Positions 51,001 through 54,000 of a stretch of DNA of 64,000 bases are shown one piece after another. The position numbers are program-made. The DNA is from Escherichia coli (GTDB lineage Bacteria; Pseudomonadota; Gammaproteobacteria; Enterobacterales; Enterobacteriaceae): the NCBI RefSeq assembly GCF_041248615.1, contig NZ_CP158426.1; one strand, given 5' to 3'. Each line of letters begins with the position of its first letter. Positions within the stretch are counted from its first letter, which is position 1.

Positions 51001-54000
51001 GGATATCGGTTGGAATGATGTAGGAGCATGGTCTTCGCTTTGGGAATTAGGGAAAAAAGACTCCTCTGGTAATGTTATCACGGGAGACATCGTTTGCCAC
51101 GAGACAGAAAATAGTTATATTTATACTGAGTCTGGATTGGTAGCAACTATTGGTATTCAAGATCTTGTTATTATTCATACTAAAGATTCATTACTGGTTT
51201 CCAGACGTGATTCAGTACAAAATGTAAAAAATATTGTTCAGCATCTTGATTTGTCAGGACGTAAAGAACATAAAGAACATAGGGAAGTATTCAAGTCATG
51301 GGGACGATGTGACTCCATAGATAGTAGTGAAAAGTACCACTATCAGGTCAAACGAATAACAGTTAATCCAAGTGAAAAATTATCGTTGCAATTGCATCAT
51401 CACCGTGCGGAACATTGGGTTGTTGTAATGGGGATTGCTAAAGTTACAGTTGCAGAAGAAATAAAAATTTTAAAAGAGAATGAGTCTGTATATATTCCTG
51501 CAGGTATTAAGCATAGTTTGGAAAATATTGGGACAATACCACTTGTGTTAATAGAAGTTTGGACCGGTTCTTATCTTGCTGATGATGATATCCTTCGATT
51601 TGAAGATTGATATGGTAGAGCTTAGAAATAGAGAGTCTTAATAATGCTAACTTGCTTTAAAGCTTATGATATTCGCGGGAAACTAGGCGAAGAACTGAAT
51701 GAAGATATCGCCTGGCGCATTGGGCGTGCCTATGGCGAATTTCTCAAACCGAAAACCATTGTGTTAGGCGGTGATGTCCGCCTCACCAGCGAAACCTTAA
51801 AACTGGCGCTGGCGAAAGGTTTACAGGATGCGGGCGTCGATGTGCTGGATATCGGTATGTCCGGCACCGAAGAGATCTATTTCGCCACGTTCCATCTCGG
51901 CGTGGATGGCGGCATTGAAGTTACCGCCAGCCATAATCCGATGGATTATAACGGCATGAAGCTGGTGCGCGAGGGGGCTCGCCCGATCAGCGGGGATACC
52001 GGACTGCGCGATGTCCAGCGCCTGGCAGAAGCCAACGACTTCCCCCCCGTTGACGAAACCAAACGCGGTCGCTATCAGCAAATCAATCTGCGTGACGCTT
52101 ACGTTGATCACCTGTTCGGTTATATCAATGTCAAAAACCTCACGCCGCTCAAGCTGGTGATTAACTCCGGGAACGGCGCGGCGGGTCCGGTGGTGGACGC
52201 TATCGAAGCCCGCTTTAAAGCCCTCGGCGCACCTGTGGAATTAATCAAAGTACACAACACGCCGGACGGCAATTTCCCCAACGGTATTCCTAACCCGCTG
52301 CTGCCGGAATGCCGCGACGACACCCGCAATGCAGTCATCAAACACGGCGCGGATATGGGCATTGCCTTTGATGGCGATTTTGACCGCTGTTTCCTGTTTG
52401 ACGAAAAAGGGCAGTTTATCGAGGGCTACTACATTGTCGGTCTTCTGGCAGAAGCGTTCCTCGAAAAAAATCCCGGCGCGAAGATCATCCACGATCCGCG
52501 TCTCTCCTGGAACACCGTTGATGTGGTGACCGCCGCGGGCGGCACTCCGGTGATGTCGAAAACCGGACACGCCTTTATTAAAGAACGTATGCGCAAGGAA
52601 GACGCCATCTACGGTGGCGAAATGAGCGCCCACCACTATTTCCGTGATTTCGCTTACTGCGACAGCGGCATGATCCCGTGGCTGCTGGTCGCCGAACTGG
52701 TGTGTCTGAAAGGAAAAACGCTGGGCGAACTGGTGCGCGACCGGATGGCGGCGTTTCCGGCAAGCGGTGAGATCAACAGCAAACTGGCGCACCCCGTTGA
52801 GGCGATTAATCGCGTCGAACAGCATTTTAGCCGCGAGGCGCTGGCGGTGGATCGCACCGATGGCATCAGCATGACCTTTGCCGACTGGCGCTTTAACCTG
52901 CGCTCCTCCAACACCGAACCGGTGGTGCGGTTGAATGTGGAATCGCGCGGTGATGTACCGTTGATGGAAGAAAAGACAAAACTTATCCTTGAGTTACTGA
53001 ACAAGTAATTCAGTAATTTCATATAAATGGGTTTTAAAAAACGGAAAAGATGAGATATCCGGTGTGGTATAGCCAAGGTAATGCTATTCAGTATCTCTAT
53101 GAGTGAGTTAACATCTATACCACATTTAAGCCGCACACTTCGCGGTGACCACCCCCTGACAGGAGTAAACAATGTCAAAGCAACAGATCGGCGTCGTCGG
53201 TATGGCAGTGATGGGGCGCAACCTTGCGCTCAACATCGAAAGCCGTGGTTATACCGTCTCTATTTTCAACCGTTCCCGTGAAAAGACGGAAGAAGTGATT
53301 GCCGAAAATCCAGGCAAGAAACTGGTTCCTTACTATACGGTGAAAGAGTTTGTTGAATCTCTGGAAACGCCTCGTCGCATCCTGTTAATGGTGAAAGCAG
53401 GTGCAGGCACGGATGCTGCTATTGATTCCCTCAAACCATATCTCGATAAAGGCGACATCATCATCGATGGTGGTAACACCTTCTTCCAGGACACCATTCG
53501 TCGTAACCGTGAGCTTTCTGCCGAAGGCTTTAACTTTATCGGTACCGGTGTTTCTGGTGGTGAAGAAGGTGCGCTGAAAGGGCCTTCCATTATGCCTGGT
53601 GGGCAGAAAGAAGCCTATGAACTGGTTGCGCCGATCCTGACCAAAATCGCTGCAGTGGCTGAAGACGGTGAGCCATGCGTTACCTATATTGGTGCTGATG
53701 GTGCAGGTCACTATGTGAAGATGGTTCACAACGGTATTGAATACGGTGATATGCAGCTGATTGCTGAAGCCTATTCTCTGCTTAAAGGTGGCCTGAACCT
53801 CACCAACGAAGAACTGGCGCAGACCTTTACTGAGTGGAATAACGGTGAACTGAGCAGTTACCTGATCGACATCACCAAAGATATCTTCACCAAAAAAGAT
53901 GAAGACGGTAACTACCTGGTTGATGTGATCCTGGATGAAGCGGCTAACAAAGGTACCGGTAAATGGACCAGCCAGAGCGCGCTGGATCTCGGCGAACCGC

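Follow-up and report, generated by a model that had tools for sequence, protein, structure and literature searches.

The manB gene of an Escherichia coli O7-antigen cluster as a mosaic with a long cpsG-type core

Introduction

How did manB, a gene of a low-GC O-antigen cluster, come to resemble cpsG of the colanic-acid cluster, and how long ago? The locus that raises this question lies in a stretch of 64,000 nucleotides of Escherichia coli contig NZ_CP158426.1 (RefSeq assembly GCF_041248615.1), called the window throughout, which contains the region of colanic-acid and O-antigen genes of E. coli O7. A preliminary description, made from the sequence alone, had taken manB for a near-identical copy of cpsG that arose by recent gene conversion. 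Our comparisons lead to a different timing. The gene is very probably a mosaic, in which an old replacement by cpsG-type DNA was followed by short-patch reshuffling and which forms, together with cpsG, a repeat that can serve as a substrate for deletion.

Gene layout and composition

Alignment of the window with the annotated region of E. coli B REL606 gives the order cpsB, cpsG, wcaJ, wzxC, wcaK, wcaL, wcaM, and galF on the colanic-acid side and rfbBDAC, wzx(O7), vioA, vioB, glycosyltransferase genes, wzy(O7), wbbD, manC, manB, and gnd on the O7 side. The features are given below; the gene calls and coordinates of the preliminary description for cpsG, manB, and manC were correct.

27675-29111, + strand: cpsB, colanic-acid mannose-1-phosphate guanylyltransferase; GC 0.553; homologous annotation in REL606 and CFT073
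29213-30583, + strand: cpsG, colanic-acid phosphomannomutase; NF011943, 1050 bits
29223-30545, + strand: copy 1 of the repeat, the 1,323-bp tract common to cpsG and manB
30546-51647, + strand: interval between the repeats, with wcaJ, wzxC, wcaK, wcaL, wcaM, galF, and the O7 cluster from rfbBDAC through wbbD and manC (order from the REL606 annotation)
49362-50189, + strand: wbbD, 275 aa, intact in the window
50186-51610, + strand: manC, AT-rich (GC 0.347), serogroup-specific, 61% nucleotide identity to cpsB
51644-53008, + strand: manB (rfbK) of the O7 cluster, the mosaic gene
51644-51647, + strand: O7-specific 5' end of manB (ATGC...)
51648-52970, + strand: copy 2 of the repeat, cpsG-type core, GC ~0.55, 48 mismatches to the resident cpsG
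51961-52456, + strand: internal patch that contains 18 of the 19 sites at which the two classes of O7 manB differ (scan P = 5e-5)
52334-52440, + strand: longest stretch without a mismatch to cpsG, 107 bp (counterpart 29909-30015)
52971-53008, + strand: 3' tail of manB, AT-rich and not cpsG-like
53009-53171, + strand: manB-gnd spacer, conserved in the O7, O6, O11, and O58 clusters
53172-54578, + strand: gnd, conserved right flank, with between-strain divergence from ~53450 onward

The colanic-acid genes have a GC content of 52-59%, and most of the O7-specific genes one of 27-36%; the value returns to 50-57% at ~51600, where manB starts, in a jump between manC (35%) and manB (55%). Several complete E. 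coli chromosomes, among them that of an O7:H15 strain, match the 4 kb at 49300-53300 with 100% identity. Against E. coli B, BL21, and REL606 the identity is 99.4%, with the match in two pieces around an IS1 between wbbD and manC; wbbD is the 275-aa galactosyltransferase ORF, and the E. coli B derivatives carry an annotated IS1 between it and manC.

Divergence between the window and REL606 steps up abruptly to 3-6% in the genes that flank the O7 cluster, at 33500-37300 (wcaK-wcaM/galF) and at 53450-54440 (gnd). Judged from this alignment, the steps appear to mark the edges of a horizontally exchanged O7 block. On the colanic-acid side, the cpsB-cpsG spacer (29112-29212) measures 101 bp in the window and 192 bp in REL606 and CFT073, an indel of ~91 bp; REP-element indels have been described in this spacer (Iguchi et al. 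2011, PMC3158064).

The tract common to cpsG and manB

By blastn, 29223-30545 aligns with 51648-52970 over 1,323 bp without a gap; the offset is 22,425 bp, and 48 positions differ (96.37% identity). In 50-bp bins in the same register, identity is 92-100% within the tract, the last full bin with its 86% excepted, and 20-34% just outside, having dropped to the random level within ~50 bp beyond either edge. The 5' edge lies at codon 2-5, where cpsG reads ATGAAAAAATTAACC... and manB reads ATGCTAAC..., and the 3' edge follows ...ATGGAAG, leaving a divergent, AT-rich manB tail of 38 nt. The composition of the tract is that of the putative donor locus and not of the recipient cluster: GC is ~0.55 in the core, as in the cps genes, compared with 0.347 in manC and ~0.31 in the tail (our own count of the printed sequence). 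Because identity falls to the random level outside and GC jumps from manC to manB, the cpsG-type tract in manB is real and sharply bounded, far beyond chance. A diverged, AT-rich 3' tail beside a cpsG-type core fits replacement by homologous recombination or gene conversion.

Set against these alignments, the preliminary description was right in its outline and too strong in its wording. It had called the two genes almost base-for-base identical for ~1.3 kb; the long ungapped tract is there, but 48 mismatches are too many for near-identity. It had the proteins diverge only at their ends, where they do differ, yet four internal residues differ as well (A to V, H to R, S to P, and Q to H). Its account of manC as AT-rich and strongly diverged from cpsB was accurate (61% nucleotide and 58.5% amino-acid identity; GC 0.347 versus 0.553), so that the pairwise alignment it had suggested sets sharp edges and 96.4% identity against 61% for manC and cpsB. 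Evenly spread differences without sharp breakpoints had been named as the pattern that would speak against replacement; the differences are indeed uniform inside the tract, yet the edges are sharp. The mirrored antisense ORFs that it pointed out in the two genes exist, but no protein family in NCBIfam matched them, and we dismissed them as a trivial by-product of GC-rich duplicated sequence.

Both mutases are called phosphomannomutase CpsG by NCBIfam (NF011943), at 1048.3 bits for manB and 1050.2 bits for cpsG with a curated cutoff of 801 bits, and manC is named GMP_PMI.

Two classes of O7 manB

Among 93 genomes that carry the O7 3' region, manB occurs in two classes, the window type in 18 and the E. 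coli B type in 75. The window and REL606 genes differ at 19 positions, of which 18 fall in the 496-bp internal patch (scan-permutation P = 5e-5), and these 18 are the exception to a level of ~1 difference per kb between the two strains from ~37500 to 53450. Neither version of the patch has a donor of at least 99% identity outside the O7 genomes among 5,426 complete E. coli genomes; the best non-O7 match, at 97.8%, is the O58 manB of ETEC4088. Private bases are present in each version, the right part of the window-type patch matches the O58 manB, and the 3' 440 bp of the core are nearly identical between O7 and O58 manB. Such a pattern fits one or more short-patch replacements that would have followed the spread of the O7 cluster, with donors outside the sample. 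A broader possibility is that manB serves as a lasting sink, taking up short conversion tracts from an unsampled pool of cpsG and manB alleles, perhaps that of another species. We consider this unlikely; if it were true, the mosaicism of manB could be used as a recorder of the past hosts of an O-antigen cluster.

A longer cps-like tract is found in the O75 cluster of NZ_CP019961.1 (locus L008, 3001-5394), which corresponds to 28133-30542 of the window and is 92.5% identical to the cpsB-cpsG sequence there. It takes in ~980 bp at the 3' end of manC together with the spacer and the core of manB. This manB has a tail of another kind and is separated from gnd by wzx. The GC content of this manC, 0.48, is consistent with a chimeric gene.

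Junctions, tail, and spacer

To the right of the core, O7, O6 (CFT073), O11 (GN02270), and O58 (ETEC4088) share the manB tail and the spacer of 163 bp before gnd with few or no differences, whereas the O157 and O75 tails differ from this type, and the 5' junction is different in every serogroup examined. An allele panel of only six genomes (two O7 strains plus O6, O11, O157, and O58) shows the contrast between the two neighboring genes: manC of these clusters is 64-70% identical from one to another and always low in GC (0.35-0.38), the range being 61-70% when cpsB is included, while the manB cores all have a GC content of ~0.55.

Beyond E. coli, the exact 13-residue tail peptide has no match in the GTDB representatives, one genome per species. 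A relaxed 10-residue pattern has seven matches in the same set, and a manB-gnd context is present only in that of Citrobacter braakii; the other six, in unrelated metagenome-assembled genomes, are taken to be chance from a rough estimate of the information content of the pattern. In C. braakii ATCC 51113, the order is a cpsB-like ORF, a GC-rich mutase gene with a manB-type tail, and gnd. Core, tail, spacer, and gnd align contiguously with 51649-54643 of the window at 82%, and the tail is ~83% identical to that of the window manB by our own count of the printed sequences. Since the tail and spacer are common to O6, O11, and O58 manB and recognizable in C. braakii, the core-tail junction is probably old and inherited, and not the breakpoint of an event in this strain. 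The preliminary description had placed breakpoints close to both ends of the ORF; the sharp edges bear this out, but the 3' one is too widely shared to date from conversion in this lineage.

Concerning its layout, the C. braakii locus (9837-13375, minus strand) has the cpsB-like ORF, the phosphomannomutase gene, and gnd adjoining, as in the E. coli deletion products described below. Over the 13 kb of sequence covered, this strain may also have lost an intervening cluster, or the layout may be its normal arrangement.

The AT-rich manB tail aligns codon for codon with the tail of cpsG. The tail-peptide scans, which covered a single genome for each species, turned up no AT-rich manB that had this tail and had escaped conversion, and the reading of the tail as a remnant therefore rests on its composition and on this codon alignment.

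That four serogroups have the same tail and spacer, that the 3' 440 bp of the core are so alike in O7 and O58, and that sites specific to manB exist would also agree with a simpler history, in which cpsG was duplicated once, long ago, beside gnd, was fused to a short foreign 3' end, and spread as a module of flanking DNA without repeated conversion. Distances within the panel are against this. Comparisons of manB with cpsG, of cpsG with cpsG, and of manB with manB all fall at 29-53 differences per 1,271 sites, three closely related pairs excepted, so that distance does not separate manB from cpsG, and the O6 manB is nearest to the cpsG of its own strain and to the window cpsG (29-30 differences). 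The 5' junctions, moreover, vary by serogroup, O157 and O75 differ in tail and tract extent, and the O7 internal patch points to later exchange. A single duplication is thus an improbable source of the pattern, and replacement of manB by cpsG-type DNA, with exchange continuing afterwards, accounts for it better.

Age and donor of the core

Among the 48 mismatches between manB and the resident cpsG, 43 are at third codon positions, and the Nei-Gojobori estimates are dS = 0.158, dN = 0.004, and dN/dS = 0.025. This low ratio and an intact ORF are consistent with manB encoding a functional phosphomannomutase. The mismatches are evenly distributed (KS P = 0.97), and the hypothesis of one breakpoint inside the tract was rejected by max-chi-square permutation (P = 0.95).

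How far manB stands from cpsG can be judged against the distances between cpsG alleles, which over the 1,323-bp core amount to 46 sites between the window and REL606, 39 between the window and CFT073, and 53 between REL606 and CFT073. The O7 manB, used as a query, finds a copy of 95-99% identity in 4,571 of the 5,426 complete E. coli genomes, and in genomes with cpsG only the identity is 94.9% to 96.8%, a range that encloses the 96.4% of the resident gene. Converted from these identities, the cpsG genes of other strains have ~42 to 67 mismatches to the O7 manB, and the resident cpsG, with 48, stands roughly in the top fifth of alleles by similarity, as read from evenly spaced rows. In the panel, the nearest non-O7 relative of the window manB is the O58 manB, with 23 differences per 1,271 sites versus 43 for the resident cpsG, and 13 sites common to both O7 manB alleles are missing from all six cpsG alleles examined.

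These figures bear on the account in the preliminary description, by which the resident cpsG was recently copied into manB in this lineage, both breakpoints being products of that event. Part of it stands: a cpsG-type core does lie in an AT-rich cluster, its edges are sharp, its similarity to cpsG is far above that of manC to cpsB, and the resident gene ranks fairly high among possible donors. The remainder does not. A recent resident conversion would leave manB much closer to the resident gene than to other alleles, or with stretches of near-zero divergence, and neither was found: cpsG genes of other strains reach 96.8%, the O58 manB lies at about half the distance of the resident cpsG, the 13 signature sites occur in none of the six cpsG alleles, and the 3' junction is common to O6, O11, O58, and C. 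braakii. Because the differences are evenly spread, dS is 0.158, and the distance equals that of cpsG to cpsG between strains, the tract does not appear recent and the resident gene is unsupported as donor, being no closer than the cpsG of many other strains. Recent conversion in this lineage is accordingly very improbable, and we infer that the replacement of manB by cpsG-type DNA is old. If the dS of ~0.9-1 between E. coli and Salmonella is taken to represent ~100 million years, a dS of 0.16 would correspond, as a rough inference, to millions of years, but no real date can be assigned to the tract because cpsG and manB alleles recombine.

The notion that the similarity is due to selection on protein or codon usage, or to an assembly artifact that collapsed or copied the repeat, has nothing specific in its favor beyond a low dN/dS that marks the protein as constrained, and it is effectively refuted by the identity of ~86% of synonymous sites (44 of ~310 differ), by the 61% of the similarly constrained manC-cpsB pair, and by the presence of the two-copy arrangement in 93 independent complete genomes.

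The direct repeat and its deletion products

Both copies of the repeat are on the + strand, with perfect runs of up to 107 bp in the 1,323 bp at 96.4% identity; 52334-52440 and 51778-51855 are the longest of these runs. Orientation, length, and identity make the manB-cpsG pair a substrate for homologous deletion. The gap between the copies is 21.1 kb, in line with the ~21 kb noted earlier for their separation, and the repeat period is 22,425 bp, which is what an equivalent crossover in the window would remove.

The predicted product, composed of the 3' part of cpsB, the cpsG core, the manB tail, the spacer, and the 5' part of gnd, was searched for in the 5,426 complete E. coli genomes. Four genomes, none of them this exact strain, carry cpsB, a chimera, and gnd as their only copy: NZ_CP069459.1 (locus L006, 5564-10042), NZ_HG994851.1 (locus L007, 5564-10132), NZ_CP128888.1, and NZ_LR536431.1. 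In two of the four, the annotation shows cpsB, cpsG, and gnd as neighbors and lacks everything from wcaJ to the end of the O-antigen genes. The chimeric genes start with MKKLTCF and end with a manB-type tail. Compared with cpsG and manB of CFT073, the chimera of isolate 127 switches cleanly from one to the other at one crossover close to its 5' end, while the gene of FDAARGOS_1249 is an O11-type manB throughout, with 6 differences. The match of the chimeras to O6-type and O11-type manB suggests that the parents of the four genomes were O6-like and O11-like. As to overall gene content, the four are without wcaJ-wcaM, galF, and the whole O-antigen cluster. The earlier proposal that the direct repeat is a deletion substrate is thus well founded, since E. 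coli B, which has the O7 cluster of the window, the type strain of O14, and these four natural genomes all provide documented cases.

Origin of the mosaic

Taken together, the data suggest that manB is tripartite, with a 5' end of a few serogroup-specific bases, then a core of 1,323 bp that would belong to the cpsG allele pool of E. coli, and finally an AT-rich tail of 38 bp. The tail would be the leftover of a diverged, low-GC manB and continues into the conserved spacer and gnd. The core would have come from homologous replacement (gene conversion) of that AT-rich manB by cpsG-type DNA, the transfer presumably running from cpsG-type DNA into manB, in an event that was probably old. Later it would have been rearranged by homologous exchange of short patches with other alleles of cpsG and manB, inside one chromosome or from strain to strain; these data do not distinguish conversion of the first kind from recombination of the second. 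Lying 22.4 kb apart as direct copies, cpsG and manB would form a substrate for RecA-type recombination, and a crossover between them would delete wcaJ through manC and leave a chimeric cpsG'-'manB gene beside gnd.

The pair explains the joint loss of O-antigen and colanic-acid genes that is frequent in evolution experiments with E. coli B and in rough or O14-type isolates. The pair likewise accounts for the poor performance of manB as a marker in O-serogroup typing and in phylogeny; both points are established. The only increments from this window are the probable old age of the tract, a 3' junction common across serogroups and C. braakii, and two O7 manB alleles that differ by an internal patch.

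Comparison with known systems

In 1993 (J Bacteriol 175:148), Marolda and Valvano reportedly described rfbM and rfbK of E. coli O7:K1 VW187, with ORF275, rfbM, and rfbK upstream of gnd, and are said to have noted that RfbK is very similar to CpsG and that rfbM is divergent and low in GC; the same behavior of manB and manC in Salmonella was reportedly found by Jensen and Reeves in 2001. Publications on the O7 cluster (in E. coli B) and on other serogroups already contain the observation, its reading as a gene replacement, and the deletion that follows from the repeat.

The closest known parallel is E. coli B REL606, which has the same O7 cluster and gene order, with blastn blocks across the cluster 98.3-98.8% identical to the window. 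Its manB and cpsG are 96% identical, as in the window, and seven rearrangements by recombination between them have been reported (Raeside et al. 2014, PMC4173774). This recombination removes the O-antigen and distal colanic-acid genes, and the region was deleted in 10 of 12 populations of the long-term evolution experiment (LTEE), as in the 23,293-bp deletion in Ara-1 (PMC4173774). The resulting chimeric phosphomannomutase in E. coli B is described in a 2026 preprint (bioRxiv 10.64898/2026.06.14.732165). REL606 differs from the window in that its manB belongs to the other allele class, in the IS1 beside wbbD, which the window does not have, and in a period of 23,293 bp rather than 22,425 bp.

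For O157, manB is more than 95% identical to cpsG, which is attributed to gene conversion in the account of Iguchi et al. (2011, PMC3158064), who cite Samuel et al. 2004 for it. As with the two O7 classes, it varies more than any other gene of a cluster that is conserved in the remainder (PMC3158064). O157 is like the O7 cluster of the window in having a manB core that is more than 95% cpsG-like beside a manC that is still AT-rich. It is unlike it in the 3' tail and junction, KLMEKKTKALLKLLSE, in the 5' end, and in that manB is not the last gene before gnd.

Deletion has also been described outside E. coli B. The O14 type strain lost its O-antigen cluster through recombination between two manB genes (Jensen and Reeves 2004, as summarized in PMC7685785). 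The deletion in this O14:K7 strain, in the terms of that summary, is the outcome predicted for the repeat of the window, which keeps both copies. The four natural deletions found here are in other serogroup backgrounds than that of the window, and their chimeras resemble manB of the O6 and O11 types.
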